From: Candidatus Woesearchaeota archaeon | GTDB lineage: Archaea > Nanobdellota > Nanobdellia > Woesearchaeales > GW2011-AR4 | NCBI GenBank assembly: GCA_016181305.1 | Contig: JACOZN010000012.1 | Location: forward strand, 965-64,964 | Reading direction: 5' to 3' | DNA length: 64,000 nt | Part shown: piece by piece, positions 20,864-46,921 of the stretch | Numbering within the stretch: position 1 is the stretch's first letter | Layout: each line of letters starts with the position of its first letter | The notes under the pieces: model-generated | Database searches by the model: none | What the model saw: the letters and a program-made list of their open reading frames with translations, nothing else | Told to the model about the DNA's origin: nothing | Made by a program: the position numbers and the translations under genes

Positions 20864-21691
20864 TTAAGCAAGTTTCTCAACAACTTTAGCCATAAACATT
20901 CTTCCAAACACAAGGCTGGACAGTATGAGAATTATAGACATTGGCATGATAAGCACGCTTTTTTCCATGAAATAGTACAGCAAAAACGCCGACATAAAAA
21001 ATAAAAAAATATTGATAAAATAAACAGCCAGAATGTAGTGTATTTTCTTTATTCCAATAATCAAAGTCCTTTGAATTACATTTTTTAGTTCAGTCTTCTG
21101 CGCTAATGCTATTGAAACAAGCATAAAGTAGGCAAGGATTATGGAAAGTATCAAAAATGGAACGTATTTCGTGAGCAGTTTTGCGCTCACTTCCGCAATG
21201 CCTGTAATTGGAATGTTAAGCAGCGAGTAGAAGAAAATGAAAACCAAGCCCAAATAAGCCAATGAAATGACAAATATTTTTAAAAAATTCCTTGTTAGCT
21301 GATTAAGGCTGGTTTTATGGATTACCTTATGCACAACAGCCCATTCAATTGACATAAAAAGTATTGGCAATATAAAAATATAAACCAAATAAATCCTAAA
21401 ATTCTTCACTATCTCATTAAAATTCCTGCTTATGAGCAAGGGGTCGTCTCCCAGAATGCTTTTCTGCTCCAGAATGCTCGATGCAACTGACTCTTCGTCA
21501 AGCCTTAAGCTGCTTAGGTATTCGTCAATTGCCCTCTGGCTTTCAATCATTTTGGGGACATAAATGTAGCTGATTTGAAACATTGCTGCGAAAAACCCAG
21601 CCTGCAGGGCTAGCATCAAAAAAAACATCAGCTTGTTTTTCCAAACCAAAGCAAATGATTCTTTCAGAGAATTATAAATTATTTTTGGCAT
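20864..21691 (-). CDS. polytopic membrane protein, terminal gene of island module A
   Basis: The ORF track gives 20864..21712. I prefer the ATG at 21691 (MPKIIYNSL...), which lies 1 nt after the stop of the 2179-aa gene. About 6 TM segments. It resembles the 252-aa protein of module B in size and topology and shares a K-I-H motif. Confidence 0.6.
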   Translation of the reverse strand: MPKIIYNSLKESFALVWKNKLMFFLMLALQAGFFAAMFQISYIYVPKMIESQRAIDEYLSSLRLDEESVASSILEQKSILGDDPLLISRNFNEIVKNFRIYLVYIFILPILFMSIEWAVVHKVIHKTSLNQLTRNFLKIFVISLAYLGLVFIFFYSLLNIPITGIAEVSAKLLTKYVPFLILSIILAYFMLVSIALAQKTELKNVIQRTLIIGIKKIHYILAVYFINIFLFFMSAFLLYYFMEKSVLIMPMSIILILSSLVFGRMFMAKVVEKLA

Positions 21692-21692
21692 T

Positions 21693-24600
21693 TTATGTTT
21701 TGCAGCACACAACGCTGGATGTAGCCTGTTCTTCTATAGCCCCTAAGCACGGGAAGCCTGCAGTCACAAACTGCTTTGAAGTACATGATGTGATATCTTT
21801 GCATGAGCCATATCCATTATCCTTGTCGCCGCACAGCACCTCAAATTTTGTATTAAATGTATCCTGCCCTGCCCGGCTTTTGCTTGTGGCAGTAACCTTT
21901 CCCTGGTATTCTCCGGCAATGCTAAACTCGCTTGTCTGGATTGTGCCTTCAAACACATTCTGCACGGTGGTGGGATTAAAAGTTGCAGTCTTTTCGATTG
22001 AATCAGGACTTGTGTAATAAAATATTATGTCTTTCACGTCACTTGGATTTTTCATTGTTGTGGATATTTTAACAGCTTCTATCTGGTCTTTGCTTACCTG
22101 GGAAGGCTCGACTTTTGCGTCTTTTATAAGAGCGCCCTGCAAGCCGACTCCCTGCGGCCTTTTTGTCTCAATCCTTATAGGTATTATTTTCTGCTGCGGC
22201 TTGTCTGGGTAAAGCACAGGGTCGTTAAAGGAGCATTCCTCAGGATTGCTGAATGAATCAACATTTTGCTTTAAGTGGTACAAAGCAAGCACTAAATTTC
22301 TCGGCGTTGATTGCGGAGTTGCTGCTGTTGTCTGCCTCACTGGCCTTACCTCCAGAGTTCCGCCTACAACGCCGACAGGCTTGTCTGCTCCCTGCGGCTT
22401 TTCCTTCCGCAATGCTGTCCTGCCGTCAGCTGCAAGCTGCAGATTCGCGCTTTTAATCTTCAGCTTAACCCCCTCTTTCTGGATTATAAATGCGCCTTCA
22501 TCCCTGTTTAAATATTCGGACTCTGATATTTTCTTAATGGCTGAGGGGTCTAAAACGCTTACGGAATCCTCGTCGCCGAAGAAGTTTATTGCGCCGTCAT
22601 TATTCATGTCGTAGAACTTAACAAAAACGCGCACTATCTGCTCATTGCTCAATTCCACCGGCTCGATATCCAGGCCCCTTTTGTCGCCAACAATCTGCTC
22701 TACCTGCAAGTCAGACGGCAGGCTTATTGTAACCCTGTACTGATGCGTGCCGTTTGATACTATGGGAACAATATCCTTTTCAACGCCGTCCAAAGTAGCC
22801 CTCAGGCATTTATCCTGCCCTATTTTGTTTACTGTGGCGTCTATGCCTATTGCACTGCCAACGCTGAAAACGAGCTCTTCTCTTTTGTTTATGTCAACGC
22901 CGTCTATCCTCACGTCAGTGAAATAGGCAATTCCCTTCCTGTTTGCAAATGTCGCTCCGTCGCCGCATATGAACGATCCTGACAATTCATCAAGCCTGCA
23001 GTCTAAAATGTCCCTTGCAGTCCTGTCTATCAACGGAAAGTAAAACACTCCGTCATCGTAGCCTTGAGGATAGCAGTTCGGCTTGATGTTTGCCTGTATC
23101 TTCCTGTCAGTCCTTAGCGTGAATTTCAGATGATCATACCTAACATTGTCGTCTATAACTCGCCTGCCTGAAGGAATTGCCTTTTCCTCAAGGACATTCT
23201 GCTTAAGCCTTCCATTAAACACCAATGGCCCTTTTCTTTCATCTGCAAGATTTATGCAGTCGCACTGGCTGTAGGCAGCTGACGTGCCCAAAGCGCCTGT
23301 ATAGGCAATTGAAGGCGCCCCCAATGCCCCGCAGTTTATCTGGTTGGGGTACAAGTCAAGCTGCTTTCTTCCAACGCATGCCAATTGAACATCATACCTC
23401 TCAAAGTCGCAGCCCGGGTTGATTATCCAGGACGCCCTGTACTCGTATTTTGGGGTAAACCTGACTGGATCAACAGTCAGAAATTCCCTGCTTCTTGTTA
23501 TCGGCTGCACCAATGTTGCAAATGGAGTTGCGTATGCGGCATCAACAATGTTTTTCACATTGATTTCCCAGTCATAGCCGAAAGCCCCAAGGCATATTTT
23601 TCTTGCAACGCTTTCCTCTCCTGTGCCGAGGATTTCGTTAAGCTTCGCATTTCCATACTCGTTTCTTAGCTGCTGCTGCAAGTCAGTAATGCCTTCATGA
23701 ATTCCCTTGAATCCTGACTTTACATATTCTATTATGCTGTCGCTCTGCGCATTGACGTCTGTGCCAGACTCTTGCGGAGTGCAGCCGTCTACAAACCACC
23801 TTATAACCTGCCATATCGCGCTGCACAGGTATTGCGTGAACAATTCCTTGCACGCCCCTGAGTCTCCCCTTCCTGTTGTTCTCACTTGTATTAAGCACGT
23901 TGACATTGATGTCATAAGATTCTTGATGAACTGTATCCTGTTGCTTATCCCTGCAAGGTGCACGCATTGCACCGCAGCCCAGTGGTCCTTGAAAGGGTCA
24001 ACTGCCATCACAGTCTCGGGCTTGAACGGCTCGTAAATCCAGTGGTTCTGCCCGAAGCATGCAGGCAGGTCTCTTCCCTCAATGTATCTTTTCGGGTTGT
24101 ATTCATTATGCACAACAGACGTGTCATCCACATCTCTTGCCTCAAACTTTTCCTTGAAATACCTGTAGCTCCATTTCATCTGTTCAAAATCAGTTGAGCC
24201 AAGCCCTTGTGTCTCCGCAGATGCGCTGGCTTTTTTTGGCTCATGGACTGGGCTTTGGGTTTCATACACTGCCTTGTCATCAGGGCTGTAGTAATTTGTT
24301 GTCAGTTTTGTTTCCTTTGCATTTATGCAGCAGCATTCCTCCCTTGTTGCAGTCAAGTCGCTTACTGCTTCGGCATTATTGCCTGTGTAGAAGCAGTCAT
24401 TTGTGTAGCCTGCTGTAAGCGCAGATTGGATGGAGTATATACTGCCATTAATTGCCGAAATTTGCTTATTTTGGTTGAATGACCTGCAAGTGTCGACTTT
24501 TGTGCACGCATACCCAATTTTATTTGATGATTTTGATTTTGGGTCTGGCTCTATTTGAATTGGGGTTCCTCCAAGATTTACTTTATTCTTTTTTTGCTGG

Positions 24601-27600
24601 TCTTGCGGCTTTACCCCGCAAATCTCTGCACAGCTCTTTTGCTGGGCGGTTATATAATGGAATTCATCTTTTTTGACTGCATAACTTATTGTAATTTCAG
24701 ATGGGCCAGTCAAGCGCTCTAATTCATATAGGTTGCCAGTAGATTGTTTTCCCAGCCTGAAAAGCGCTTTCTTTCCTCCTTTTTCCACCTTAAAGCACTT
24801 ATCATCAATGTTGTATATTTCTTTATTTAGCTGAAACGAAGCTGCCACATCCCTGCATTTCTCTGGATTTAAAGGCAGCCCTCTTACGCTCTGGTCAACT
24901 CCGCACCCTTCAATGCTTGTAACTTTATTGTATAAATCCGTATCATCCTTCTTCTCAGTCCATTTTGCAGGGGCTGCATGCCCGAACACCCTGTCGCAGC
25001 TCCACCTGAACCAGTTGTATGCGCTCGCCTCTGACTCCCATGCGCCTGCAGACGCAGGGAAGCACTTTCTCAGGTCAGCGTCAGTGACATATTTCATCTG
25101 GAAGCTGCCTTTCTTCTCGGCAATGTCCTCCATCATCCTCTGGCAGTCATCCTTGTCGCCTTTGTTGGCAGGCTTCAAAGGCTTTTTCTCAAAAAGCTCG
25201 AAAATCTCCGAGGCTCCCAGCCCCCTTTTCAGAATCAAAAACGGCTTTTCCTCCCAGAAAGCAATCCATCTCCTGTAAATGCCAAGAACCAGGTTCAATC
25301 CGAATGATGCAATGCAGCCGACTGCTGCAAAATCAAGCAGCTTGTCAATCTGCTCCTGCACTGAAGTCAAAGTCTTTATGGAGCTCTGCAAAAAATTTAC
25401 AAAGTCAAAAAGCAGCCAGTCAGGCAAAAATTTCCTGGGATCTATTATGGTGCTGTCAACAACATAGCTTACCTGCTCGCAAGTTGTCTGCGTTTCTGTC
25501 TCCAGAACACCGTCATTGTCCATGTCGTGCTGGTATGTTATTTTCACCTTCACAGGGAATGTGAGTTCCTTGTTGATAGCCTTCAGGAAGCTTTTCCAGT
25601 CCTTTTCCAAAAATGAGTCCATGCCCGGGAATCTTGAAAGCGTCATAGCCGAGTAAGAAACCGTGTTGTCAGGCGGGTTGAGCAGCTTCGGGCTATTGCT
25701 TGAAGGCATAATCTGGCAGCTTATATTGAACCTCGGGTCAAGCAGCTCCCTTGTGCTGCACGCCTTTGATAATAAGACTCCTTTTATCTTTGGATTTATG
25801 CCTCTTCCTATGTAAGAGTAATTAAAGATAAAGTAAATGGTTTCTGTGCCTTCTGCCATCCTTTCAGTGCTGAGGAATGGCGGGCTCTGGTAATTGGCAA
25901 GGGGAATCACGTCCCAGCTTTGGTTGCCGCTCCAGCATGTGCCAATCCTGACGCTTCTTGTCGCAAAGCCCCTCTGCCCCGTGGCGTCAGTTGCAATCAC
26001 AACAAGCGTTGTTGTTTTTGAATCCTTGGCTTCCTCAAGGCTTGTGTCCCTGAAATCCGAGACAGGCACCTCCCTGAGGCGGGCAGCGCCGCCGAAAATT
26101 GCAGTCAAATCCACATTCTCAAACTTGAAATTCCCGCTGCTGTCCGATGTTGTCGAGAAATCAGCCCCTGTGCTGCATAAAGATTTTGAAGCGACATTGA
26201 ACCTGCATTTTGCATCAAGCTGGGGCTCTGCAATATTTTGGACTTCATTAGCCAATCCGCTTAATTCAAAAGTGGCGTTGAAGCTGCTGAAAGGGGTCCT
26301 GTCAACAAACAGATGAACTCTGGCATTCGGCTTTGTTGTCCCAATAACGTTAACTTCGTTGGCTGCATTCTCGAAAAGCAGGGCGCCGCTTGGGGGGCTT
26401 GTTATCTTTACATCAGGCTTCTTTGTATCAAGCACAACATTCCTTTCAAAAACAACGCTGTTTTCAGCCCTGTCTTCGAATACAAGCTTTATGAAATAAT
26501 TTCCATCGCCTTTGTTCAGCCTTATTCCAAAATTAAAGACTCCGCTGCCGTTGAGCACGAGGACAGGTTTTCTGAAGTCCTCAAGTATGTCGACTTCAGG
26601 ATATTTGAGGTTCAATATCGCTCCCCCTTTCAGGGTGGTTGCTGCAACAGGCCCTGATTTCGGCCCTTCGTTTGCAAAGTTATTGACTGCTGAAACCTCG
26701 TATGTGTAGGTTTTCCCGCTGTCAACCAAGGCATCTATGAACAGGTTAAAATTTGCCGGCTTTGTCAGCGCAATCGGGCTCGAATCCTCCCTATAAACAA
26801 CATAATGGCTGAAATCCTTGTCTTTGGACTCGTCCCAGTGCAGCTCGACAAAATTCTGCCCTATCCTGGTGGCATTCAGCCCTGCAATCCTTGAGGGCAC
26901 TGCAGTGTCGTTGGCTTTTGCGTCGACAAAAACCTTTATCAGCGCCTGCTCGTTCACAAAGCCGCTTATTGTAAGATTCTGTTTTGATGTGAGGGACGGA
27001 ATGTCGTCAAGCTGCACAACAGGCTTTTCAGTGTCGACACTAACCTCGAATATTTTCTGGTTTCTGTTGCCTGACTTGTCAGCAACTGTTATCTTTACAA
27101 TATTGTCATTGTTCAGCTGAATCTGGCTGAAGACAAACCTGCCTGAGCTTCCGACTTCGTTCCCGCTGAGGCTTCTTTTTGGGATTCCCATGTCATTGAC
27201 GAACAGGCTTACGGACGAGAAAGGCTCTGTGGAGCCGACTATGTCAATCACCCTCCTGTTTACAAACCTGGGGATTGAGGCATTGATGAAAGGAGGGGTT
27301 ATGTCCCTTCCCGCAGTGAAGTTCCGGCCTGAGGAGTTTGCGCAGTTGCCTGATGCGTCGCACGACTTGACAATGAAAATGTATCTTGTATTTTTTACAA
27401 GCCCGTCTATCACAATTGAATGGTTGGTTACAAGCTGGGTTGAGCTTTTGATTTTGTCGGTCCTGTTGGTGCCGTAAAGCACTATCGTTGTTGCATTCTC
27501 GTCAGTCAGCCATGTTGCCCTTGCAGTTGTATCAGCCACAGGAAGTATGTCTACGCTTGTTATTGCAGGAGCAGAAGAATCAACTGCGCCTGTCGAGGCT

Positions 27601-28232
27601 GCCAAGGTGTTTGACTGGGCGCCTTCATTGCCGCTGGCATCAACCGCAGAAACCCTGTAGCTAAAGGAGCTTTTTGCCTGCAATCCCGTGTCATTAAATG
27701 TGTTTGCCGTTGAATTGCCCACAACTGCAAAATTCCTGTAAATCAAATAGTGGCTCAGGTCTGGGATATTCATGCTGTTCCATGAAATAGATATCGAATC
27801 CTGTGTTGAAGACAATGCGCTCAGGCCAGTGACTTGCGGAGGAGGCGTTATGTCTGCTGTCCTGAAAGTGTAAAAGCTGTTTGAGTTGTTGTCTGTTGCT
27901 GAGCTGCCCGCCAAGTTCATGGACTCAACTGCAAAAAAGTATGTTGTATCGCTCTCAATCCCGCTTATTACCGTCACCGTGTGGTTATTGACGAAGTTGT
28001 CATGGACTTGCTTGAATCCCAGGGCCGATGTCTTGCCGTAATGCACTTTTCCGTCTGCCATCTCGTCTGTAGTCCACTCGATTGTTGCGGAGTTTGAGGT
28101 TACCTTTGTAGCCCTTGCATTGGATATTGTAAGTCCATAAACATTTGCAGTGTAGAAAGGCAGCGTCAGAACCAGCTGTATCATGAGCACGGTCATCAAT
28201 TCAGTTATTTTTAACTTGGCTTTTGAATTCAT
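21693..28232 (-). CDS. giant secreted Cys-rich surface protein (2179 aa), FN3/Ig-like N-terminal repeats
   Basis: Uninterrupted 6.5 kb ORF. The signal peptide ends LVLTLPFYTANVYG. At least 4 FN3-like units are present (ATIEWTTDE..., ISISWNS...YLIYRN, ARATWLTDE..., VELHWDES...YVVYRE). There is one internal hydrophobic segment and many Cys in the C-terminal ~1300 aa. Confidence 0.85.
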   Translation of the reverse strand: MNSKAKLKITELMTVLMIQLVLTLPFYTANVYGLTISNARATKVTSNSATIEWTTDEMADGKVHYGKTSALGFKQVHDNFVNNHTVTVISGIESDTTYFFAVESMNLAGSSATDNNSNSFYTFRTADITPPPQVTGLSALSSTQDSISISWNSMNIPDLSHYLIYRNFAVVGNSTANTFNDTGLQAKSSFSYRVSAVDASGNEGAQSNTLAASTGAVDSSAPAITSVDILPVADTTARATWLTDENATTIVLYGTNRTDKIKSSTQLVTNHSIVIDGLVKNTRYIFIVKSCDASGNCANSSGRNFTAGRDITPPFINASIPRFVNRRVIDIVGSTEPFSSVSLFVNDMGIPKRSLSGNEVGSSGRFVFSQIQLNNDNIVKITVADKSGNRNQKIFEVSVDTEKPVVQLDDIPSLTSKQNLTISGFVNEQALIKVFVDAKANDTAVPSRIAGLNATRIGQNFVELHWDESKDKDFSHYVVYREDSSPIALTKPANFNLFIDALVDSGKTYTYEVSAVNNFANEGPKSGPVAATTLKGGAILNLKYPEVDILEDFRKPVLVLNGSGVFNFGIRLNKGDGNYFIKLVFEDRAENSVVFERNVVLDTKKPDVKITSPPSGALLFENAANEVNVIGTTKPNARVHLFVDRTPFSSFNATFELSGLANEVQNIAEPQLDAKCRFNVASKSLCSTGADFSTTSDSSGNFKFENVDLTAIFGGAARLREVPVSDFRDTSLEEAKDSKTTTLVVIATDATGQRGFATRSVRIGTCWSGNQSWDVIPLANYQSPPFLSTERMAEGTETIYFIFNYSYIGRGINPKIKGVLLSKACSTRELLDPRFNISCQIMPSSNSPKLLNPPDNTVSYSAMTLSRFPGMDSFLEKDWKSFLKAINKELTFPVKVKITYQHDMDNDGVLETETQTTCEQVSYVVDSTIIDPRKFLPDWLLFDFVNFLQSSIKTLTSVQEQIDKLLDFAAVGCIASFGLNLVLGIYRRWIAFWEEKPFLILKRGLGASEIFELFEKKPLKPANKGDKDDCQRMMEDIAEKKGSFQMKYVTDADLRKCFPASAGAWESEASAYNWFRWSCDRVFGHAAPAKWTEKKDDTDLYNKVTSIEGCGVDQSVRGLPLNPEKCRDVAASFQLNKEIYNIDDKCFKVEKGGKKALFRLGKQSTGNLYELERLTGPSEITISYAVKKDEFHYITAQQKSCAEICGVKPQDQQKKNKVNLGGTPIQIEPDPKSKSSNKIGYACTKVDTCRSFNQNKQISAINGSIYSIQSALTAGYTNDCFYTGNNAEAVSDLTATREECCCINAKETKLTTNYYSPDDKAVYETQSPVHEPKKASASAETQGLGSTDFEQMKWSYRYFKEKFEARDVDDTSVVHNEYNPKRYIEGRDLPACFGQNHWIYEPFKPETVMAVDPFKDHWAAVQCVHLAGISNRIQFIKNLMTSMSTCLIQVRTTGRGDSGACKELFTQYLCSAIWQVIRWFVDGCTPQESGTDVNAQSDSIIEYVKSGFKGIHEGITDLQQQLRNEYGNAKLNEILGTGEESVARKICLGAFGYDWEINVKNIVDAAYATPFATLVQPITRSREFLTVDPVRFTPKYEYRASWIINPGCDFERYDVQLACVGRKQLDLYPNQINCGALGAPSIAYTGALGTSAAYSQCDCINLADERKGPLVFNGRLKQNVLEEKAIPSGRRVIDDNVRYDHLKFTLRTDRKIQANIKPNCYPQGYDDGVFYFPLIDRTARDILDCRLDELSGSFICGDGATFANRKGIAYFTDVRIDGVDINKREELVFSVGSAIGIDATVNKIGQDKCLRATLDGVEKDIVPIVSNGTHQYRVTISLPSDLQVEQIVGDKRGLDIEPVELSNEQIVRVFVKFYDMNNDGAINFFGDEDSVSVLDPSAIKKISESEYLNRDEGAFIIQKEGVKLKIKSANLQLAADGRTALRKEKPQGADKPVGVVGGTLEVRPVRQTTAATPQSTPRNLVLALYHLKQNVDSFSNPEECSFNDPVLYPDKPQQKIIPIRIETKRPQGVGLQGALIKDAKVEPSQVSKDQIEAVKISTTMKNPSDVKDIIFYYTSPDSIEKTATFNPTTVQNVFEGTIQTSEFSIAGEYQGKVTATSKSRAGQDTFNTKFEVLCGDKDNGYGSCKDITSCTSKQFVTAGFPCLGAIEEQATSSVVCCKT

Positions 28233-28249
28233 TTTATTGCTTATTTATC

Positions 28250-30178: not shown

Positions 30179-30194
30179 TTTTACACCATATTTA

Positions 30195-30350
30195 TCATTT
30201 GGATTTCTTATTCAGCGCCTTCACGTCAATCTTGCTCAGGTCAATCTCCACATAGTCCTTCTCCGTCAGATTAAGAACCTTGACTATATCAGAAGGCACC
30301 CTTACAACAAGCCCTCCGCTTGTCTTCATCAGCTTTTTTGTGTACTTCAT
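30195..30350 (-). CDS. AbrB/SpoVT-like small DNA-binding protein (51 aa; absent from ORF track)
   Basis: My own translation: MKYTKKLMKTSGGLVVRVPSDIVKVLNLTEKDYVEIDLSKIDVKALNKKSK. The G-x-V-x-(I/V)P...L-x-L...D-x-V pattern is typical of the swapped-hairpin AbrB fold. It ends 16 nt before the 642-aa gene. Confidence 0.6.
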   Translation of the reverse strand: MKYTKKLMKTSGGLVVRVPSDIVKVLNLTEKDYVEIDLSKIDVKALNKKSK

Positions 30351-30457
30351 TTCATATATGAAATATAGATATTTTATATATTTTTTATATATTTCTCAAT
30401 ATTAAAAAGGATAGATTTATATATAAATTATATATGAGATTTATAAATATTGCGGTT

Positions 30458-31216: not shown

Positions 31217-31221
31217 TTTGG

Positions 31222-35589: not shown

Positions 35590-38500
35590 TTTTTTGTTTT
35601 AACCGGCGTAAAGCCAGAATCTCCTGTTGTCTTTTTTGGCTTTGACTTGTCCTTCAAGTCCAATCTCGAGCAATAATCTTCCCTTACCTTAAATCCTTCA
35701 TCTATAATATTTTTCACATTGCCTATGACTTCCCCTGTTTTCGCCAATAGCCTCCAGCCTTCGCATGCTGTGAATACTGCAGTAGAGGTTGGCGCCGGTG
35801 CAGGGCAAGTCGTCTTGCACAGCAATGCAACTCCGACTCCCAAGGCTGAAAAGGGGTTTGACAAGGCGTCCTTTATTATTCCGGTAAAGTGGTCGAACAC
35901 GGCAGTGTAGGGAATCAGTGCAAAAAGCTCTCCGTAAACATACTTGCAGGTTGAAAATGCTTTCAGGTCCTCGCATGCGGTCACTGGCAGCCCATCCTGC
36001 GCAACAGCGTTTTCCAAACAATCAGCATACAGGCATTTAATCTGCCTGTACTTGTCCAATCCGTAAATTATTCCGGGAATGCACGCAAACAAAGTAGCAA
36101 CTATGAGGTTTCTCTGCGGGTTCATGTATTCTGCAAAGCCTCCTTTGATTTGGTCGCCCACTTTAACCTGCCCTCCAAGAGAATACTTTCCTTCCCCTCC
36201 AGAAACATATTCAGGACTTGGTGTAGGCAGGTATTTTGCTCCGGGCAGGCTGTTAATCATGCCCTTTACGTTATTCTGCCAATATCCTAAAACCCATGGC
36301 GCCCATTGGCAGTTGACAAACTTGCAAGCCTTGACTCCAAAGTCTATGAAGGCATTTTGTGCAGCTTCTTCCCCGGCTTGCTGCGCCCCGCATTGGGCTG
36401 TCTTGGCGTTATAAGCTGCAGTACAAACCGGAATTCCTATTATAGGCAGTCCCCCTTTATAACAATTGTCAGTGAAAATTCCAAGAAGTACTGTTATGGT
36501 GTACATCACAGTAATAATATTGTACAGCGTAGCAAACAATTGGCATATCTTTTTTGCAATGGTGAAAAACTTGTTAAGGCTGGAGATAGCCTTGAAAATG
36601 CCCTCTGCATCATCCTTTGCGTCTTTTATCTTGCGCTGGATTTCGCTGCTTACCTCCCCTAATGGAAGATTTGAAAACAGGAGATTTATCTTTGCAGTTT
36701 CTATCTCCGGGTTTCGTGTTATGTCTGTACCGCTTCCAATCTTCGAGAATATGTTGAAAGAGCAGCTTAGGCTTGCATTGCTGAGCTTGAAGTCATCTTT
36801 CTTCAACGTTATCTTTATGACAGGCGACGTGCTTCCTGGCTCTGTGTTGAAAGTGTCAACGCTGTCCACGATTGATGTGTCGCCTGAGCAGCTTGCAGAC
36901 CCAATGAAAACAGTCGAGACAGCCTTTGTTGCTGATTTCTGGCTTAAGTCAACTTCGCAGAAAACCCTTTGGTTTATCAGCGGACCAAGCTGCCTGTCAA
37001 TTGTTTCAGGAGAGCACTCGGCTTCGCTCGTCCAGAAATTAGGCACAGTGGCGTTTTCCAGGCCATAAGTCTTCAATGACTTTGTAACAATAAGCGTGTT
37101 GCCTGCATTGTCGCTGAAGTTGAACGTTATGAAATCAGAGGCTTCAAGGTTTATGGGGTCAGTAAGCCATATGCATATGTTCTCGTCTGCCTGTATCTTT
37201 TCGCATTCTCCCTTGGCATCCGAGGCATCGCTTATGAAGCTGGAAAAGTCGGCTGATACAAAAACATCGTTGTCTTCTGTGACATTTGCAACTACAGCAA
37301 TCTTGTCGCCTATCTTGAAAAAGCCTGCAAATGCCTGGGCTAAGCCGCCTACATTGGTTATGTTCATGCTCTTCAACTGAGGGGCATCCTGGTCAAGCTT
37401 TACCTCAAGCTGCGTCTCTTCAGCAACTGAGTTTCCAAGCAAATCCGTTGTGTCAGAGCCTATGGAAATTGTGGAAACTGGCCTGAACCTGACATCTTCC
37501 CAGATGCATGTCCATCCTGACTCCTGAATGCAATTTGACGCTTTGAGCTTGGCTCCGTCAACAACAAGTATTGCGTCTTCCGGGCTCAAGCCCGTTGAGT
37601 CGTCGAAAACAGCTGTTACAACATTGCCTGATGCTTTGCCTATCAGCTGCCCGTCTGCCAAAGTGGACGTTGACAAGAGCTGCAAAACAGGCCCTTCCTC
37701 GTCCAAAGAAAGAAGCTTTGTAATTGTGACGCTTCCTTTGTTTCCTGACTTGTCAGAAGCATTGATTATGATATTCTTGAAGCCGCCAGTGCCTGGCTTG
37801 AGCTCAACAGCCCATGCGCATGCGCTTGTGCCGCCTTGCAGTGTGCACGATGCCTTTGCATTTTTTAAGGCTTGGCTGGGGTTTAATGCTGACAAATCAG
37901 CTGTTACTGAACTCAGGCTTAAGTCATCCCCAGATATATTGACAGCCACAACTGCGTCCGAGCCAACAGAGGAATAGGTGCTAATTGCTATGTCTTTTAC
38001 AAAAATGCCAAAAGTGCCGGGCAATGCCAAAGGAGGAGTGTTGTCTATTGTAAATGTTGCCGATGCATCGTCTGAAACCTGGCTGAATTTGTCGGTTGCC
38101 TTTGCAAACACAGAATTCAGGCCGTCGTCAAATACGCCGGAGTTAATGGATATGTTGGAGCTGTAAATGCACTCGCTTGAAGAAATGTCAACCTTTTGGC
38201 TGAGCGAGCTGTCCAGCGTGAAAAACTCTATGCTTTTTATTCCTGCGCACTTGCCGCCGCAGGACGGCTCGTCGCATGCAAAGTCCGCAATGCTGTAAGT
38301 GATGTTAATGTTCTGTCCTGAGGAAAACTTGCTCTTTGGAATGGTTAGCTTAACTTCAGGCGGCTTGTTGTCTATAGCCAATGAGCTTTGCTTTGAGTCG
38401 TCAAGAGTTTTGTCGTCCCTGTAAAGGTTTATTGTGACAGGGAATGATGTTGCATCAAATAATTCTGTGCCGCTGCTTGGGTATCTCAGCGTGCACAAAA

Positions 38501-38774
38501 AGCTTCCATTGGACAATGCATCGCACTTGTCAAACTGAATTCCTGGATCTGCCCCTACAACAATCTGCTCCGGAGTTATCGTGTCTCCGGCAATTGAAGC
38601 CTGCGCTTCCAAGTTGATGAAGTCCTCTTCGCGCGCAAATCCCTGGATATTGTCGCTTCCCTTCACAGACACTGTGCCTATGCCTGCATAGGCGCTTGTA
38701 GTGTAAAAAGGAATTGTCAGCACTAAGACTATCAGGAACGATGCAACAAACTGCATGTATTTTTCATTGCTCAT
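35586..38774 (-). CDS. giant secreted Cys-rich protein (1062 aa)
   Basis: The signal peptide ends LVLTIPFYTTSAYA, the same motif as the 2179-aa protein. It has Ig-like repeats, then hydrophobic segments and a Cys-rich C-terminal region (ACEDLKAFSTC). ATGA overlaps occur at both ends. Confidence 0.85.
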   Translation of the reverse strand: MSNEKYMQFVASFLIVLVLTIPFYTTSAYAGIGTVSVKGSDNIQGFAREEDFINLEAQASIAGDTITPEQIVVGADPGIQFDKCDALSNGSFLCTLRYPSSGTELFDATSFPVTINLYRDDKTLDDSKQSSLAIDNKPPEVKLTIPKSKFSSGQNINITYSIADFACDEPSCGGKCAGIKSIEFFTLDSSLSQKVDISSSECIYSSNISINSGVFDDGLNSVFAKATDKFSQVSDDASATFTIDNTPPLALPGTFGIFVKDIAISTYSSVGSDAVVAVNISGDDLSLSSVTADLSALNPSQALKNAKASCTLQGGTSACAWAVELKPGTGGFKNIIINASDKSGNKGSVTITKLLSLDEEGPVLQLLSTSTLADGQLIGKASGNVVTAVFDDSTGLSPEDAILVVDGAKLKASNCIQESGWTCIWEDVRFRPVSTISIGSDTTDLLGNSVAEETQLEVKLDQDAPQLKSMNITNVGGLAQAFAGFFKIGDKIAVVANVTEDNDVFVSADFSSFISDASDAKGECEKIQADENICIWLTDPINLEASDFITFNFSDNAGNTLIVTKSLKTYGLENATVPNFWTSEAECSPETIDRQLGPLINQRVFCEVDLSQKSATKAVSTVFIGSASCSGDTSIVDSVDTFNTEPGSTSPVIKITLKKDDFKLSNASLSCSFNIFSKIGSGTDITRNPEIETAKINLLFSNLPLGEVSSEIQRKIKDAKDDAEGIFKAISSLNKFFTIAKKICQLFATLYNIITVMYTITVLLGIFTDNCYKGGLPIIGIPVCTAAYNAKTAQCGAQQAGEEAAQNAFIDFGVKACKFVNCQWAPWVLGYWQNNVKGMINSLPGAKYLPTPSPEYVSGGEGKYSLGGQVKVGDQIKGGFAEYMNPQRNLIVATLFACIPGIIYGLDKYRQIKCLYADCLENAVAQDGLPVTACEDLKAFSTCKYVYGELFALIPYTAVFDHFTGIIKDALSNPFSALGVGVALLCKTTCPAPAPTSTAVFTACEGWRLLAKTGEVIGNVKNIIDEGFKVREDYCSRLDLKDKSKPKKTTGDSGFTPVKTKK

Positions 38775-40894: not shown

Positions 40895-40960
40895 TTTATT
40901 GTTTTATTTTTTAATGAATTTTTTTATTATGTTTTATTCTAAATCTATTTTTAATTTAAA

Positions 40961-41131
40961 TCATTCCTTTTTATCGTTACTTAATTCCCTCTGTATCAGC
41001 TCCAAGTCGTACATCTTCTGCTCCATCAGCTCCCTGGCTAGCATTGACTTCTTCTTGCCAAGCTTTCTGGAAACCTTTTCCAGCAGCTCGTTGATTTCTT
41101 TTGATACAGTAATGCGTATTTGAATACTCAT
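40961..41131 (-). CDS. ribbon-helix-helix (CopG/Arc-like) small DNA-binding protein (56 aa; absent from ORF track)
   Basis: My own translation: MSIQIRITVSKEINELLEKVSRKLGKKKSMLARELMEQKMYDLELIQRELSNDKKE. It shows a beta-strand (IRITVS) followed by two helices. It is the first gene of module B. Confidence 0.65.
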   Translation of the reverse strand: MSIQIRITVSKEINELLEKVSRKLGKKKSMLARELMEQKMYDLELIQRELSNDKKE

Positions 41132-41155
41132 TTTTACCTATTAGTATACATTTTT

Positions 41156-41173
41156 TATACTTATTTAAGTATA
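41156..41173. promoter_or_regulatory. 18-bp palindrome TATACTTATTTAAGTATA in RHH-gene promoter
   Basis: Perfect 8-bp arms around a TT centre, 25-42 nt upstream of the RHH ATG. It overlaps a TATA-like TTAAATAAG on the minus strand. Confidence 0.45.
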
Positions 41174-41237
41174 ACTATTTAAAGTTTCCTATTAAAAAAC
41201 AGCCATAAATTCAATAATTTATACATAAAATAGTATA

Positions 41238-41266
41238 AATAAAGTATTAATAAAGAATTAATAAAG
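41238..41266. repeat. three AATAAAG units at exact 11-bp period in divergent promoter region
   Basis: Units at 41238, 41249 and 41260. The extended form is ATTAATAAAG x2. Confidence 0.5.
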
Positions 41267-41299
41267 TATATATAAGGCTTACAAAACAAAATAACAAAC

Positions 41300-41307
41300 T
41301 TTAAATA
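41300..41307 (+). promoter_or_regulatory. TATA box for 41331 gene
   Basis: TTTAAATA ends 23 nt before the ATG. Confidence 0.45.
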
Positions 41308-41330
41308 CAATATGCTTCAAAAAAGCATTA

Positions 41331-42557: not shown

Positions 42558-42590
42558 AAAACAATTAAAAAAATCATTAAAATTAAATAA

Positions 42591-42672
42591 AATCACGAGA
42601 GCGACTTTATCGAAAATCCATTGGATTTTCGGAAATGATCGGAAATGCAAAGCATTTGCCGACATTGTGATT
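42591..42672 (+). other. structured intergenic element (nested hairpins) between the 408-aa and 613-aa genes
   Basis: Outer arms are AATCAC(42591-96)/GTGATT(42667-72). Inner hairpins are CGAAAATCC-att-GGATTTTCG (42611-42631) and CGGAAATGC-aaa-GCATTTgCCG (42640-42661). Confidence 0.45.
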
Positions 42673-42733
42673 AACAGCAAGATGAAAGTGAACCGCTTTT
42701 AATGAGTTTAGTAAATCAGTAGGCGAGGCAAAT

Positions 42734-44575
42734 ATGTATATATTCAAGCACAGGCAAAAACTGCGGAAAAAGAGGATTTACAGCAAAGCCCAGATGTCTG
42801 TATTCTGGATTATGGGCTTGGTTATGTTTATAGCGCTGGTTGCAGGCTTGTTCGTCTATAACGACTTAAGGACGGCTAAGATTAAGGAAGGGGCAAAAAA
42901 TGACCTGAGCTCGCAGGCAGAGGAAATTGAGAAATTTGTGAACGACTGCATAAGAAAAGAGGCGTTTGAGGGATTGAAAAGGCTTGGGCAGACTGGCGGC
43001 TATCTTGAAATCCCGAAAATCATAAGCTTCAAGGGCACAGGCTATTGGTACCTGGATGAGGTTAACATACAGCCAATCCTCAACCAGACTCAGGAAAGGC
43101 TGCTCGAGCACATCAGTGCAAACGTGCCAAAATGCGTTGACGACGAAAGAATAAAAGAGCTTGGGTTTGCAGTCCAAAAAGGGGCTATAAAAACGACAAT
43201 CGAGTTCGGAAATGCCGATGTGACAGTGAAGATAGAGTATCCAATAAGGCTTGAGAGGGAAAAATTCACAAAGGATTTCTCTGGTTTTTTCAACTCTTTT
43301 GACATAAGGTACAGGGCTGTGTTCGAGGCTGCCACAGAGGTGAATGAAAGGCTTTTCGACGCTGACTTCGACATCAAGAACCCATTGAAAAAATTGGATT
43401 ACCTGAAAAGCCTTGAATTTGATGTGTCATACAAGAGCCCTGAAACTGATGTAATGGTGTTTACAGTAACAGACAAGAAATCAATTCTGCCGACAAATGA
43501 GCTTTATACTTTCAGCTTTGCTGCGAGGCTCGGCACCTCTGACTTGAAGAAGTTCATTGACTTGCAGGACAACAGCGCCACAAATCCGGTATTTTTGCCC
43601 TACACAATTTATTCTGTTGACAAGAAGGCTCAGCTTGACATTTCATCAGGAACAACAATAAGCCTTGAAGGGCAGCCTGTAAAGGCGATAAGCGTTGAGC
43701 AAGCTTATCCAAATGAAGTCACAACAAAAGACGTCCCTGTCTACAAGAAAAACGACAAGATAATGCAAAAGCAGGACATAATCTATGTGATAGACAATCC
43801 CATATATACCTTTGAGCCTTCCGGGATTTTATTCAACAAGCACCAAAAGCTGGCTTTGTATTATGAGGATGAAATAAAGGCGAGCAAAGGCGTTGGAATT
43901 CTAATGGGAAAGAATGGCTTCTGGATTCCTATTCCGTCAAAGCACGAGCCTGAGCAGAAAAGGGTGTTTGCCAGCATACTAGGGTTTACTGAATTTACTG
44001 CTGTGAACTGCGCATCGCAAAAACTCAAGACAACAATTGCAGAGCATTTCTTTGAGCCAGCCCCTCCATGTTTTATATTCGGGGCATTGAGCATAATTGC
44101 TGTATTGGCAGTGGTTGTTACGCTTATCGGTGGTGGGCCTGTATTATTCGGACTTTTTGGCGGTCCAACTGCTGCTGAAGGTGGAATTATAAGTGCCATA
44201 GGCCAAGGCTTTATTAGCGGTTCAGAAGCTATCGGCATCGGCGGCATTACTTTTGGTGCTACCGCTGCCACAGTTGGAACTGTCCTTACAGGGCTAACAT
44301 TAGTTACTATAGCAGGCTCTATACTCGGAGCCACAACAGACGTCTTCTACGAAAAATCCCCTGAAAACTGCGAAACTTTCTATCCAGTCTGCGACCAGAA
44401 CATAAATATAGAAAAAGAGCTGAAAGACGGCACAGGGGACTGCATTCCGGACAGCGGCGCAAGGGTTGCCGCAGGAGCGCCTGCAAACGTATGCGCCCAG
44501 GTGAAGAAATGCGACTCATTGAGCAAGTTCTTCTGCAAGCCGTGCAGCGTGAAGTGTAGTGCGCAGTTTTATTGA
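42734..44575 (+). CDS. KxQ-anchor / GGY-domain family protein (613 aa), paralog 3, with Gly-rich membrane region and Cys-rich tail
   Basis: ...IYSKAQMSVFWIMGLVMFIALVAGLFVY, CIRKEAFEGLKRLGQTGGY, VPKCVDD, VTVKIEYPIRL, FDIRYRAVFEAA. The C-terminus has a ~90 aa G/A/I/T-rich hydrophobic stretch followed by 8 Cys in the last ~70 aa. Confidence 0.8.
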   Translation: MYIFKHRQKLRKKRIYSKAQMSVFWIMGLVMFIALVAGLFVYNDLRTAKIKEGAKNDLSSQAEEIEKFVNDCIRKEAFEGLKRLGQTGGYLEIPKIISFKGTGYWYLDEVNIQPILNQTQERLLEHISANVPKCVDDERIKELGFAVQKGAIKTTIEFGNADVTVKIEYPIRLEREKFTKDFSGFFNSFDIRYRAVFEAATEVNERLFDADFDIKNPLKKLDYLKSLEFDVSYKSPETDVMVFTVTDKKSILPTNELYTFSFAARLGTSDLKKFIDLQDNSATNPVFLPYTIYSVDKKAQLDISSGTTISLEGQPVKAISVEQAYPNEVTTKDVPVYKKNDKIMQKQDIIYVIDNPIYTFEPSGILFNKHQKLALYYEDEIKASKGVGILMGKNGFWIPIPSKHEPEQKRVFASILGFTEFTAVNCASQKLKTTIAEHFFEPAPPCFIFGALSIIAVLAVVVTLIGGGPVLFGLFGGPTAAEGGIISAIGQGFISGSEAIGIGGITFGATAATVGTVLTGLTLVTIAGSILGATTDVFYEKSPENCETFYPVCDQNINIEKELKDGTGDCIPDSGARVAAGAPANVCAQVKKCDSLSKFFCKPCSVKCSAQFY

Positions 44576-46149
44576 GGGTTATTTTTAAAATGATTGTAGT
44601 AAGCCATAACTTCTTTTACATAATCCCTCGTAGTGTAACCTGGCACAATAACTACATCAGGAACTGAGCGCTCTTTGGCGACTCTGGTGGGGCCAGCCTT
44701 GCTGTAACCTGCAGCAATCAATTGTAAGTTCCCGTTAAAGCGTTCTGTAAGATATGTGAGGACAGCCATTGATGCATCAGTAGCTGTATACTTATCCTTT
44801 TTAACTTCATTCCAGTCGTATGTCCCATATACTTCCCTTTGATTGACATCCTTCACAGCTATGTAGTTTAAGTGTCCTATCCCGTGATTTCCTTGGCTTG
44901 GTCCTACATAAGGGTCAAATTTTGACTCAACTGCAAATATGGCTTTGACAAGATTTTTATCAACTTTTAAGCTGGACAATTCTATCCTATTCACAATATC
45001 CTGATTTTTCGGAATATTTGTTTTTTCAACTAATCCTATATCCCTCTTAAACCTCTCACTTTCTCCCGATGGTATTTCAGCGTTGAACTTTACGCCCCTA
45101 ATTACAACTTCAGCATTTGTATTTGACTCAGTATTAGGCGGAATATTGGGATTCCATTTTACATTCGGCACCCTTATCTGCACATTCGAGTCTTTGTATT
45201 GAATCTCTGCATCGCCGTTTTTCAGGGCATTTAATAGCTTGATATTCTGGTCCGCATTATTTGCGCTCCTGTATGTTTCTCCCGGGAAAGTTTCTTCATA
45301 TTTTATTTTCCTCGCCTCGAAATTATTGCTGCCATAGCCTGCCTCCTTGAATACATCAGATATGGATTTGTCAGTGCCCAAAACAACAAAATTCCTTACA
45401 GGAGTAAGTGTATAGCCCAAATCATCCTCGACAAAAGAAAACCTGACCGGGCGGTTTTCAGCCATCAATTTAATGCCGTCAAATATCGTCTCTTCCTGCC
45501 GCGGCAGCACATATATATTGCTGTTTGCAAAGTCTATATAACGTTTATCGGATTTGCTAAATTTGTATCCTTTGCCGTCAAAGACTATGTCTGCTCCGGG
45601 AAGAGTTGTTGTCTTAGAATCGCCCTCAAACCTTATTGTATTTGTCTTTTCGTTATAGAAAAACTTGGTGTTTTTCCCTATTTTCTGCTCTAAAACCCTG
45701 GAGTTGTCGCCAGCAACGCCGCTAATCTCGCTGGAATATTGGTTGTATTTAACCCCATTGGAGTTTTCTATGGGCAAGCCATTAAACGGGCTATTTTTAA
45801 TTGAAAACACACCCTTTTCAATTGAAAAGCCGTCCAGTTGTTTGGAGTATGTGCCCTTGCCGGTAAACACTGCTCCGCTGTCTTTAAGAGTGGCAGTTGC
45901 ATCAACAACGCGAACCTTGCCGAGAAAATCAGCTGGAATTTCAGCAGAGCTTCCGAAAGTTAATGTCAGGGAATTTGATTCTTTATTGTAGTAAAAACTA
46001 TCGCCCACTATTTTAATGCCTATATTTTTATCAATCCATTTTGCCCTGTCTTCTTGTGTTCCACACTTGTCATAGTCGTCGCATGCGCCCTGCACAAAGG
46101 CACCAAGCGCAAAAAGTGCAATAATCCAGACCAAAATTATTTTTTTCAT
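44569..46149 (-). CDS. secreted protein with C-terminal SLT (lytic transglycosylase / GH23-like) domain
   Basis: I prefer the ATG at 46149 (MKKIILVWIIALFALGAFVQGA signal peptide), 1 nt after the stop of the 256-aa gene. The C-terminus reads LVKAIFAVESKFDP...GNHGIGHL...AVLTYL...LIAAGYSKAGPTRV, which fits the SLT pattern (A-I-x-x-x-E-S, G-L-M-Q-like, Y-L, A-Y-N-A-G). Confidence 0.7.
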   Translation of the reverse strand: MKKIILVWIIALFALGAFVQGACDDYDKCGTQEDRAKWIDKNIGIKIVGDSFYYNKESNSLTLTFGSSAEIPADFLGKVRVVDATATLKDSGAVFTGKGTYSKQLDGFSIEKGVFSIKNSPFNGLPIENSNGVKYNQYSSEISGVAGDNSRVLEQKIGKNTKFFYNEKTNTIRFEGDSKTTTLPGADIVFDGKGYKFSKSDKRYIDFANSNIYVLPRQEETIFDGIKLMAENRPVRFSFVEDDLGYTLTPVRNFVVLGTDKSISDVFKEAGYGSNNFEARKIKYEETFPGETYRSANNADQNIKLLNALKNGDAEIQYKDSNVQIRVPNVKWNPNIPPNTESNTNAEVVIRGVKFNAEIPSGESERFKRDIGLVEKTNIPKNQDIVNRIELSSLKVDKNLVKAIFAVESKFDPYVGPSQGNHGIGHLNYIAVKDVNQREVYGTYDWNEVKKDKYTATDASMAVLTYLTERFNGNLQLIAAGYSKAGPTRVAKERSVPDVVIVPGYTTRDYVKEVMAYYNHFKNNPQ

Positions 46150-46150
46150 C

Positions 46151-46921
46151 CTATTTTTCCATCGCAAAGCTGAATATGTAGTCATCTCCATCCACTTTAG
46201 TTGCATTGTCAAAAATAGTGAAAATCATAGAATCTTTCTCTGAAACAACATCAATAAAGACATTGTTTTCCGAGGCCAAGTCGATGAGGCAGTCTATGCA
46301 CAAGGCTCCATTGTCCCTTATTTTGCCTTCTGTTATGTTTGAAGCTAGGATGTATATTGTATTGAGCCTGACAGGGACCTCCGCCCTGAAATAGGGTATT
46401 TGAGTTTCTGCGCCTTCCTTGGAAATTGTAATTGGATAATTAATGTCAACTAAAACGCTTTCAGTGCCTATGGTTGATTTGACAGAGATGGCGCCTCCTT
46501 CAATCCTTGCCCCCTGGAAGTCCTGAAGCCCCTCAATGCATTGCGGCAGCTGCTCCGCTACATAGCCCGATATCTGCATCTCGACAGAGCTTCTTGAAGG
46601 CATTGTATTCCTGCTTTGATAGGCATAGTAAGGCACCTCGTCGTAGAAATAGGTTAGCTTTGGTTCAGGCACCTTGTAGTATCCCCCGTACAATCCCGTG
46701 TAAACAACTGAGTCTTTGGCTGTTTCACTCACGCAGAAATCAATGTTCAGCTTGGCAGGCAGCAGCGAGGAGGGCGCGTCTGCAACATTGACAATTTCGC
46801 TTGCTGCTTCAGCCTCCGCCCTTGTTTTGTTTATAGCAACATAGCTGATGAAAGAAGCAGCTATCACCAGCACTAGCCCAAATATAAGAAACAATGCAAC
46901 TTGGGTTTTTTTGCTCGCCAT
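46151..46921 (-). CDS. KxQ-anchor / GGY-domain family protein (256 aa), minimal paralog 4
   Basis: MASKKTQVALFLIFGLVLVIAASFISY, CVSETAKDSVVYTGLYGGY, LPQCIEGLQDF, VLVDINYPITI, VPVRLNTIYILA. It consists of little more than the shared domain. Confidence 0.75.
   Translation of the reverse strand: MASKKTQVALFLIFGLVLVIAASFISYVAINKTRAEAEAASEIVNVADAPSSLLPAKLNIDFCVSETAKDSVVYTGLYGGYYKVPEPKLTYFYDEVPYYAYQSRNTMPSRSSVEMQISGYVAEQLPQCIEGLQDFQGARIEGGAISVKSTIGTESVLVDINYPITISKEGAETQIPYFRAEVPVRLNTIYILASNITEGKIRDNGALCIDCLIDLASENNVFIDVVSEKDSMIFTIFDNATKVDGDDYIFSFAMEK

Follow-up and report, generated by a model that had tools for sequence, protein, structure and literature searches.

Gene content and layout of the locus

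A 64,000-nucleotide stretch from a Candidatus Woesearchaeota archaeon (NCBI GenBank assembly GCA_016181305.1, contig JACOZN010000012.1, positions 965 to 64,964 of the forward strand; hereafter the window, numbered from its first letter) was analysed for a gene cluster at 20864–46921, which encodes two gene modules and a third gene set for mainly large, extracytoplasmic proteins. An earlier note, made from the letters of the sequence, had described the cluster as a 26-kb island for an unassigned envelope or cell-contact apparatus, whose large proteins carry no assignable motif apart from FN3/Ig-like repeats. That reading was supported in part: the uncharacterised, extracytoplasmic and disulfide-rich apparatus and its synteny held, whereas the terms island and no motif had to be given up, as set out below. 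All 13 open reading frames (ORFs) listed in the note were recovered at the same coordinates and on the same strands.

Module B is transcribed from the minus strand and is headed by a gene for a putative RHH (ribbon-helix-helix)/CopG-like small DNA-binding protein of 56 aa (40961–41131). It is followed by the pilin-like anchor protein P707 (38771–40894), with a class III-type N-terminus RKS/QTTIF (the slash marks the predicted cleavage site), a hydrophobic helix, a GGY alpha/beta domain and three beta-sandwich domains; by the Sec-secreted giant G1062 (35586–38774), with Ig-like arrays and a Cys-rich C-terminal region holding 2–3 hydrophobic segments; by the N-terminally anchored V1455 (31222–35589), with conserved ends and a hypervariable middle; and by M252 (30458–31216), according to hydropathy a polytopic membrane protein with 5–6 transmembrane (TM) segments, which closes the module. 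Module A, on the same strand, starts with a gene for an AbrB/SpoVT/MazE-like small DNA-binding protein of 51 aa (30195–30350), suggested by weak Pfam and PDB matches, and continues with the pilin-like anchor protein P642 (28250–30178; N-terminus SKS/QAAIF), a paralog of P707, the Sec-secreted giant G2179 (21693–28232), with FN3 domains, Ig-like arrays, a Cys-rich core and a variable C-terminus, and the polytopic membrane protein M282 (20864–21691), placed by hydropathy and by its gene junction.

The third set begins with C408 (41331–42557, plus strand), which is transcribed divergently from the RHH gene and comprises an N-terminal domain in the cytoplasm, a single TM helix and a Cys-rich extracellular part with 20 Cys. 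It is followed by P613 (42734–44575, plus strand), a third and accessory pilin-like member with the N-terminus SKA/QMSVF, a Gly-rich hydrophobic stretch and a Cys-rich tail. On the minus strand lie the gene of a secreted SLT protein (44569–46149; GH23 lytic transglycosylase), whose longest ORF has a Sec-type signal peptide following M22, and that of P256 (46151–46921), a minimal pilin-like member consisting of a class III-type N-terminus (KKT/QVALF) and the GGY domain only.

The ATGA overlaps at 38771–38774 and 35586–35589 were borne out, as was the stop-N-ATG junction at 21689–21695, which reads TAA-A-ATG and thus sets the start of the last gene of module A to the ATG at 21691, with a product of 275 aa; the remaining gaps measure 5, 16 and 17 nt. 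An additional coupled junction, missed before, was found at 46147–46153 (TAG-G-ATG), where the 256-aa gene is joined to the SLT gene, so that the latter probably starts at the ATG at 46149 and not at the TTG at 46212. The claim that about 8,000 codons are devoted to extracytoplasmic proteins agrees with the sum for the nine proteins in question (7,869 codons). Cys counts of the extracytoplasmic locus proteins are mostly even, and signal peptides or anchors are present; the density of N-glycosylation sequons in the giants is only slightly above that of cytoplasmic proteins and is not decisive.

The divergent intergenic region between the RHH and C408 genes (41132–41330) is AT-rich and contains a perfect palindrome, TTATACTTA-aa-TAAGTATAA, at 41155–41174, 24 nt upstream of the RHH start codon. 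It is a possible candidate operator, chance repeats being expected in such an AT-rich spacer. In general, inverted repeats of the promoter regions were made uninterpretable by the AT-rich DNA.

The co-linearity proposed for the two modules held beyond chance for anchor, giant and membrane protein: the anchors of 642 and 707 aa matched at BLASTP E 8e-45, the families of the 1062- and 2179-aa giants at an hhalign probability of 93% over the Ig-like arrays, and the membrane proteins of 252 and 282 aa at an hhalign probability of 87% (E 4e-6, 178 columns). It did not hold for the regulators, as the predicted RHH and AbrB folds differ, and module A contains nothing that corresponds to the 1455-aa protein. 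Judged from these alignments, the two modules are in part an ancient duplication. For the 56-aa protein, the best PDB sequence match was the CopG repressor, with residues 4–37 on residues 4–37 at a weak E value of 0.13; for the 51-aa protein, Pfam MazE_antitoxin was matched at E 2.4e-4 with 21.4 bits, which is under the cut-off of 24.7, and weak PDB matches to MazE were obtained. Two further candidates were rejected. A fusion of G1062 and V1455 as the origin of G2179 was discarded, since only the Ig arrays align and V1455 matches neither of the other giants. The polytopic membrane proteins were considered as prepilin peptidases or archaeosortases and dismissed, given that they lack a conserved Asp pair, a GxGD motif, Cys and any Pfam match; across the orthologs of M252, no conserved Cys, His or protease motif was found.

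Gene order and chromosomal setting

Seven loci on other contigs (locus numbers with the prefix L) were fetched with Pfam-annotated flanks, and the other loci, about 50, were compared only with the locus proteins of the window and with an SLT hidden Markov model (HMM). The conserved order runs C408, RHH, a protein of ~710 aa, a protein of ~1050 aa, the variable giant and a ~255-aa membrane protein, followed by module A with AbrB (51 aa), ~640 aa, ~2150 aa and a ~280-aa membrane protein. The same order was found in L001/L012, L002 and L013 as well as in nine genome loci and 38 metagenome loci, wherever sequence was available, with ortholog identities of 25–95% across ~50 loci. Conserved synteny in related genomes, which the earlier note had named as a test of its proposal, was thus overwhelming, with the order repeated in ~50 loci of Woesearchaeota.

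For the single genes, the following was observed. C408 is always divergent from the RHH gene in orthologous loci (44–95% identical), and the 56-aa RHH gene is always the first of its operon (85–96%). P707 orthologs are 54–94% identical and occur in at least 255 clusters, all named ones being from Woesearchaeota or Nanoarchaeota; G1062 orthologs (34–92%) always stand after P707, and M252 orthologs (29–93%) always after the V1455 gene. In module A, the 51-aa AbrB-like proteins are 80–96% identical in orthologous loci, P642 orthologs (30–93%) keep the same position, and M282 orthologs directly follow the giant gene in L012 (52%) and L013 (30%). The genes of P613, the SLT protein and P256 are accessory. 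L002 lacks them and L001 has part of them, including a 253-aa ortholog of P256 (45% identical) that is followed by an SLT gene, as in the window.

In several genomes the locus is flanked by recurrent genes, namely those of the valyl- and cysteinyl-tRNA synthetases (ValRS, CysRS) and of RFC on one side and of a nucleotidyltransferase on the other. Within the 64-kb window, the flanks encode SRP54, RFC, several aminoacyl-tRNA synthetases and ribonucleotide reductase, which places the stretch on an archaeal chromosome. The GC content is 0.44–0.47 in the locus compared to 0.37–0.43, and neither tRNAs nor Rfam RNAs were found in the 64-kb window. As the same order and the same housekeeping flanks recur in distant relatives, the term island does not fit: flanks and order are syntenic, integrase and tRNA are lacking, and the rise in GC is only mild. 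Gene order and flanks instead identify a vertically inherited chromosomal locus, which on this comparative evidence is order-wide in Woesearchaeota (GTDB Nanoarchaeota).

A neighbouring gene at 19465–20835 (and 18704–19396), convergent on module A, encodes a 456-aa acidic-tailed protein with no Cys, TM helix or Pfam match. L012 has it beside the locus as well (39% identity), and it could act as a component of the system in the cytoplasm.

Pilin-like anchors and their secreted partners

The KxQ/GGY proteins of 707, 642, 613 and 256 aa, treated as one family in the earlier note, are real paralogs over ~240 N-terminal residues (BLASTP E 1e-13 to 8e-45), with K6, Q8, F12, C62, G78-G79-Y80 and C162 invariant in all four. 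In a six-frame scan of the 64 kb, the pattern [KR][GAST]Q with an 18-residue hydrophobic stretch was confined to the genes of these paralogs. A family profile search was performed against 1.84 billion cluster representatives, with the N-terminal ~250 residues common to the four paralogs as the query region, and yielded 8,068 representatives at E ≤ 1e-3, 5,729 at E ≤ 1e-10 and 1,113 at E ≤ 1e-30. Many family members are, like P256, stand-alone proteins of ~250 aa. For the wider family, hardly any taxon names were obtained from the cluster records. No Pfam or NCBIfam model matched the GGY domain in the four window proteins or in ten long members scanned, and the Pfam scan of these ten gave one esterase-like fusion and otherwise nothing. 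Given its size, above 5,700 clusters at E ≤ 1e-10, and the lack of a match in Pfam and NCBIfam, the GGY family would by itself merit a family definition.

The N-terminal logo of 140 representatives shows K at −3, K/R at −2, G/A/S at −1, Q at +1 in 140 of 140, I/V/L at +2, T/S at +3, F at +5 (131 of 140) and G at +9, with hydrophobic residues from +2 to +22 and a median leader of 6 residues. A short basic leader with [KR]-[GAS] at −2/−1 is shared by the four window proteins and 140 of 149 family representatives. The mapped EppA sites of Methanococcus maripaludis pilins read RAQI, KGQV, KGQL and KGQI, and EppA requires Q at +1 (PMC4371748). Since the family logo fits these sites, KxQ can be read as the core of a class III (prepilin) signal-peptide site, and the statement that no motif could be assigned to these proteins is replaced by a link to type IV pilus biology.

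The AlphaFold2 (AF2) model of P707 (pLDDT, the predicted local distance difference test, 82.9) comprises a helix (5–31), an alpha/beta domain (50–430) and three beta-sandwiches (440–700), and domains of the FN3, Ig and CnaB-like types were assigned to the protein. Foldseek searches of PDB and BFVD returned only tandem beta-sandwiches (CnaB/transthyretin-like; TM-score ≤ 0.17, or ≤ 0.19 for SlaB), from a TIE protein, SlaB, Gram-positive CnaB pilins and phage tail proteins, and the N-terminal GGY domain had no Foldseek match. In P613, a long Gly-rich, glycine-zipper-like hydrophobic stretch (aa ~430–530) precedes the Cys-rich tail and could be a membrane-inserting segment.

Every family member of the window adjoins a large secreted or anchored Cys-rich protein. 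The pairs are 707/1062 (ATGA overlap), 642/2179 (17-nt gap), 256/SLT (1-nt gap) and 613 adjoining C408, so that three of the four anchors stand directly upstream of the partner and are start/stop-coupled to it, or nearly so. Similar pairs were seen on other archaeal contigs: in L014, the genes of a 251-aa and a 257-aa member each run into the start of the gene for a Sec-secreted protein of 734 aa or 785 aa, in L016 a secreted Lon_C protein comes after a 947-aa member, and in L017 (Woesearchaeota) an AbrB-like gene and a P613 ortholog precede the genes of secreted proteins of 775 aa and 286 aa. From this recurrent adjacency, the GGY proteins are proposed to dock secreted partners. The 947-aa member, which lies with its Lon_C protease-like neighbour at 10001–14659 of L016, carries an esterase-like domain (DUF676, E 3e-5) and a C-terminal TM helix; this domain and the Lon_C neighbour show the GGY module joined to enzymes of other kinds.

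The two Sec-secreted giants begin with a common Sec-type signal peptide, [FL][LI]IxLV[LI]T[LI]PFYTxSxY[AG], located in the window at 28140–28232 (2179 aa) and 38685–38774 (1062 aa), which is shared across orthologs and between paralogs that are otherwise <20% identical. Being conserved beyond generic need, it may represent a dedicated sorting signal, in spirit like the YSIRK type. G2179 contains three FN3 domains (Pfam fn3, E 1.4e-15), Ig-like arrays, one hydrophobic helix (966–987) and a Cys-rich core (988–1800), in which nearly all Cys are invariant; according to the conservation profile, residues 1–1800 are conserved and the last 380 residues are variable. Its 53 full-length orthologs are of constant size and 39–82% identical; a protein with the locus tag HYT53_03705, from a 68-kb contig of a Candidatus Woesearchaeota metagenome-assembled genome, matches it at 100% identity. 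For V1455, the homologue search comprised at least 10 proteins; an N-domain (~120 aa) and a C-domain (~250 aa, ending DF) are conserved and everything between them is hypervariable, the orthologs measuring 820–1907 aa. For the G2179 core (aa 940–1810), the AF2 model reached a pLDDT of 66 and gave no Foldseek match below E 0.25, and PDB sequence searches with profiles of the 707 and 2179 families and with the 1062-aa protein returned FN3 or nothing. The conserved cores of the giants thus had no solved or predicted viral structural relative in these searches, and no profile or fold match assigned the core proteins to a characterised family of S-layers, pili, cannulae or hami, an outcome that the earlier note had named as refuting its proposal.

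Across the orthologs, the only enzymatic domains detected in the variable parts of the partners were peptidoglycan hydrolases. SLT was found in 7 of 37 V1455 orthologs and was the sole Pfam domain in the middle region across the 37; strong matches came from L004, L007 and L009 (E 4e-27 to 8e-19), and 4 of the 34 further orthologs carried it as well. An Amidase_2 domain was detected at the C-terminus of one of the 53 G2179 orthologs (P0170, E 5.6e-27). In the window, the SLT domain claimed for a secreted protein of the third set is well founded: the 547-aa protein matches Pfam SLT above the cut-off (E 1.2e-6, 28.6 bits vs 21.3; residues 416–514), and its catalytic E-S motif (AVESK) aligns with the ES motif of the strong SLT orthologs. 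The E value of 2e-49 obtained with the local SLT HMM is partly circular, as this model was built from four SLT segments including that of the window protein; the Pfam match is independent of it. SLT had been expected to be a core feature when three of five scanned proteins carried it, an assumption that was dropped when the unbiased metagenome set made it a minority. On domain matches, peptidoglycan hydrolases of predicted activity are therefore a recurrent, not a universal, cargo. As they are the only enzyme domains of the partners, the target, where it can be guessed, would be a bacterial wall rather than an archaeal host.

Large extracellular SLT proteins have been described as specific to Woese- and Pacearchaeota, and bacterial partners, with an action on the walls of bacteria, were proposed (PMC8204110, PMC9723730). 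These proteins (fam00969, Castelle et al. 2021; GH23, Vigneron et al. 2022) probably derive from the same genes as the SLT-bearing V1455 orthologs and the 547-aa protein; in the available portions of both papers they are treated alone, with no multi-gene locus, pilin-like partners or SLT-lacking majority of orthologs.

On the archaeal chromosome of the window, 7 kb from the locus, a class A beta-lactamase-family gene was located at 53753–54589 (Pfam Beta-lactamase2, E 7e-41). It may also be directed at bacterial walls or antibiotics.

Possible functions and related systems

The locus is proposed to encode a vertically inherited surface complex with pilin-like anchors that contacts other cells and, in some lineages, bacterial walls, a reading to which we give an even chance. 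In such a complex, the GGY proteins would be trimmed by a prepilin peptidase encoded elsewhere in the genome, and their N-terminal helix would keep them membrane-bound or part of a short stalk resembling a pilus, where they would dock the Sec-exported giants and retain these on the cell surface. A scaffold would be formed by the conserved parts of the giants, and the hypervariable middle of V1455 and the variable C-terminus of G2179 would face outward and set which targets are bound or degraded, in some lineages bacterial murein. The variable parts or an extra partner gene (as in the window) would, in a minority of lineages, supply peptidoglycan hydrolases, and at least there the complex would act on the walls of bacteria, be it to attach, to feed or to kill. 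Each of the two operons would be autoregulated by its small DNA-binding protein, RHH or AbrB, and the polytopic membrane proteins might act in anchoring or assembly. A bolder version, which we offer tentatively and consider rather doubtful, sees in the locus a new surface organelle of Woesearchaeales and related DPANN archaea, in which the GGY prepilin-like protein is a universal docking module that plugs in interchangeable giant effectors or adhesins, including peptidoglycan hydrolases, to attach to and breach bacteria; this would be the first defined archaeon-on-bacterium contact apparatus.

Several observations weigh against the proposed anchor-and-partner complex. Throughout the 255 kb of loci that were fetched, the KxQ motif was seen in family members only and is thus not independently established as a general class III signal of these organisms; its conservation could reflect shared ancestry, and the proteins may be signal-anchored, with an N-terminus conserved by descent and not for processing. 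At +5, 131 of 140 representatives have F in place of the E that is typical of Epd and bacterial pilins. The AF2 model of P707 has a low-confidence or disordered linker (32–49) between the hydrophobic helix and the globular domain, and no type IV pilin was among the Foldseek matches of this protein. Genes for a prepilin peptidase (Peptidase_A24), a pilus ATPase and a platform protein were found neither in the 64-kb window nor in the annotated flanks of the seven loci. A minority of the orthologs carry hydrolase domains (7 of 37 for V1455, 1 of 53 for G2179), and V1455 and G2179 of the window are without them. Finally, the polytopic membrane proteins are left without an assigned role in the model.

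Alternatively, the locus could encode the organism's own structural envelope, a two-component S-layer-like lattice with pilin-like stalks and a canopy of giants, for which contact with other cells would not be the primary task; this appears unlikely. The high conservation (50–70% identity) of a universal, chromosomal and vertically inherited locus would suit an S-layer, and we know of no S-layer protein assigned in Woesearchaeota, nor did one turn up in literature searches. P707 is a membrane-anchored rod of tandem beta-sandwiches, whose third-best PDB match was the SlaB stalk (8qox_B, E 8e-6), and stalk and giant are co-transcribed, as in slaAB, where an anchored tandem beta-sandwich stalk likewise accompanies a protein of >1000 aa. 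The SlaB match, however, stays at a TM-score ≤ 0.19 and is due to generic beta-sandwiches, and no S-layer family of Pfam or NCBIfam was matched. In contrast to SlaA/SlaB of Sulfolobus, the anchor is here N-terminal (opposite topology), there is no sequence homology, and the locus holds additional membrane proteins, regulators and a hypervariable component. A hypervariable protein of 800–1900 aa and hydrolase cargo are unexpected in a lattice, and two paralogous modules with extra anchor–partner pairs look like a display platform.

It is distinctly improbable that the GGY proteins are true minor or tip pilins which, together with PilY1-like giants, prime or cap a real type IV pilus built by an Epd-type machine encoded elsewhere in the genome and serve generic adhesion. 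This explanation draws on the EppA-type class III site, on archaeal Epd-type loci that hold several minor pilins and large PilY-like adhesins (PMC4858521) and on the occurrence of system 1 type IV filament loci in DPANN (bioRxiv 10.64898/2026.04.22.720090). Like the Epd/system 1 pilins of Methanococcus maripaludis, the GGY proteins have a basic leader, the sequence [KR]-[GA]-Q-[IVL] with an obligatory Q at +1 and a hydrophobic helix of ~20 residues; Epd genes, too, often lie outside the pilus locus, and Epd loci hold large adhesin-like partners. The GGY proteins differ in F at +5, in an extracellular part of 200–900 aa without pilin fold, in a flexible linker, which detaches the helix from the domain in the model, and in the lack of machinery in cis, their cleavage being a prediction. 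Their size of 250–950 aa greatly exceeds that of known minor pilins, type IV pilus systems have nothing that corresponds to the dedicated polytopic membrane proteins, and no gene for a major pilin, ATPase, platform protein or peptidase was found in the window or the seven annotated loci. The latter agrees with the earlier note, which had reported no ATPase, platform, prepilin peptidase, sortase, glycosyltransferase, integrase or capsid gene, as now supported by Pfam, NCBIfam, PHROGs and PADLOC scans, in which the locus proteins together yielded FN3/Ig, one SLT and a weak MazE match and nothing more. As to membership of the type IV pilins, the GGY proteins conform in the form of the signal peptide alone and depart from that class in fold and locus composition.

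Pilin-like proteins next to a giant Sec-secreted adhesin, in an ultrasmall and host-dependent organism, also recall bacterial minor-pilin/PilY1 tips and the type IV pili of Saccharibacteria, from which the present system differs in that there is no homology and that a pilus would here be hypothetical. Episymbionts of the Candidate Phyla Radiation (CPR) are said to use type IV pili for host binding. Genes of archaeal class III proteins commonly lie apart from those of the pilus machinery, and their products may be large non-pilins (PMC4858521; bioRxiv 10.64898/2026.04.22.720090). In the bindosome of Sulfolobales (BasEF), a prepilin-type N-terminus displays large non-pilins and the genes sit with those of functional partners, as in the present locus; the bindosome cargo differs in that it consists of solute-binding proteins encoded next to ABC transporters, whereas here a GGY domain stands by giant secreted proteins. 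By analogy with the bindosome, the GGY proteins would act as class III-anchored display proteins and not as demonstrable pilins. In their logic, the closest known counterparts are class III signal-peptide display systems (Epd pilins, the bindosome) and minor-pilin/PilY1 complexes; in architecture, SlaA/SlaB comes closest.

A horizontally acquired island, be it an integrated element, a provirus or a polymorphic-toxin cassette, is essentially excluded, as the slightly raised GC, the small genes of the RHH and AbrB/MazE-like types, the variable regions in the centre and at the C-terminus, which recall polymorphic toxins, and an adjoining LAGLIDADG gene are set against the same order and flanks in ~50 loci at 25–95% identity, the lack of integrase, tRNA, capsid gene and terminal repeat, PHROG matches to FN3 only, no PADLOC match and the lack of an immunity-like gene varying in step with the variable ends.

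Among uncultured archaea, Woesearchaeota rank with the most abundant and diverse, and to our knowledge no host, attachment structure or envelope protein has been assigned to them. No description of the locus was found in literature searches; the SLT proteins are already in the literature, and the locus and the pilin-like partners would be new. With ~20 kb in a probably small genome, the locus is a concrete and nearly universal candidate gene set, which would be tied to the type IV pilin processing pathway and would tie the large SLT proteins to a defined multi-protein system. Provided that the logic of anchor and cargo is true, the variable cargo would predict the type of partner (bacterial or archaeal) across DPANN genomes, and the locus proteins are possible targets for antibody or cryo-electron tomography (cryo-ET) labelling in enrichment cultures. 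The mode of life of Woesearchaeota and the organisms on which they live thereby become a matter of testable predictions, derived from a putative function.

Some further observations concern neighbouring genes and the compared assemblies. A free-standing LAGLIDADG endonuclease-like gene (47516–48277) directly adjoins the locus, and a second one was found in L014 (6080–6838), an unrelated contig, 3 kb from pairs of pilin-like genes. The large subunit of ribonucleotide reductase (59026–61531) is distributed over two overlapping ORFs (barrel domain positions 1–332 and 361–522), which could be due to a frameshift, an assembly error or a real split. The loci L004, L009, L010 and L011 are clear clusters of the Woesearchaeota type in metagenome-assembled genomes (MAGs) titled 'uncultured Methanosarcinales archaeon', which probably reflects mislabelling or mis-binning.

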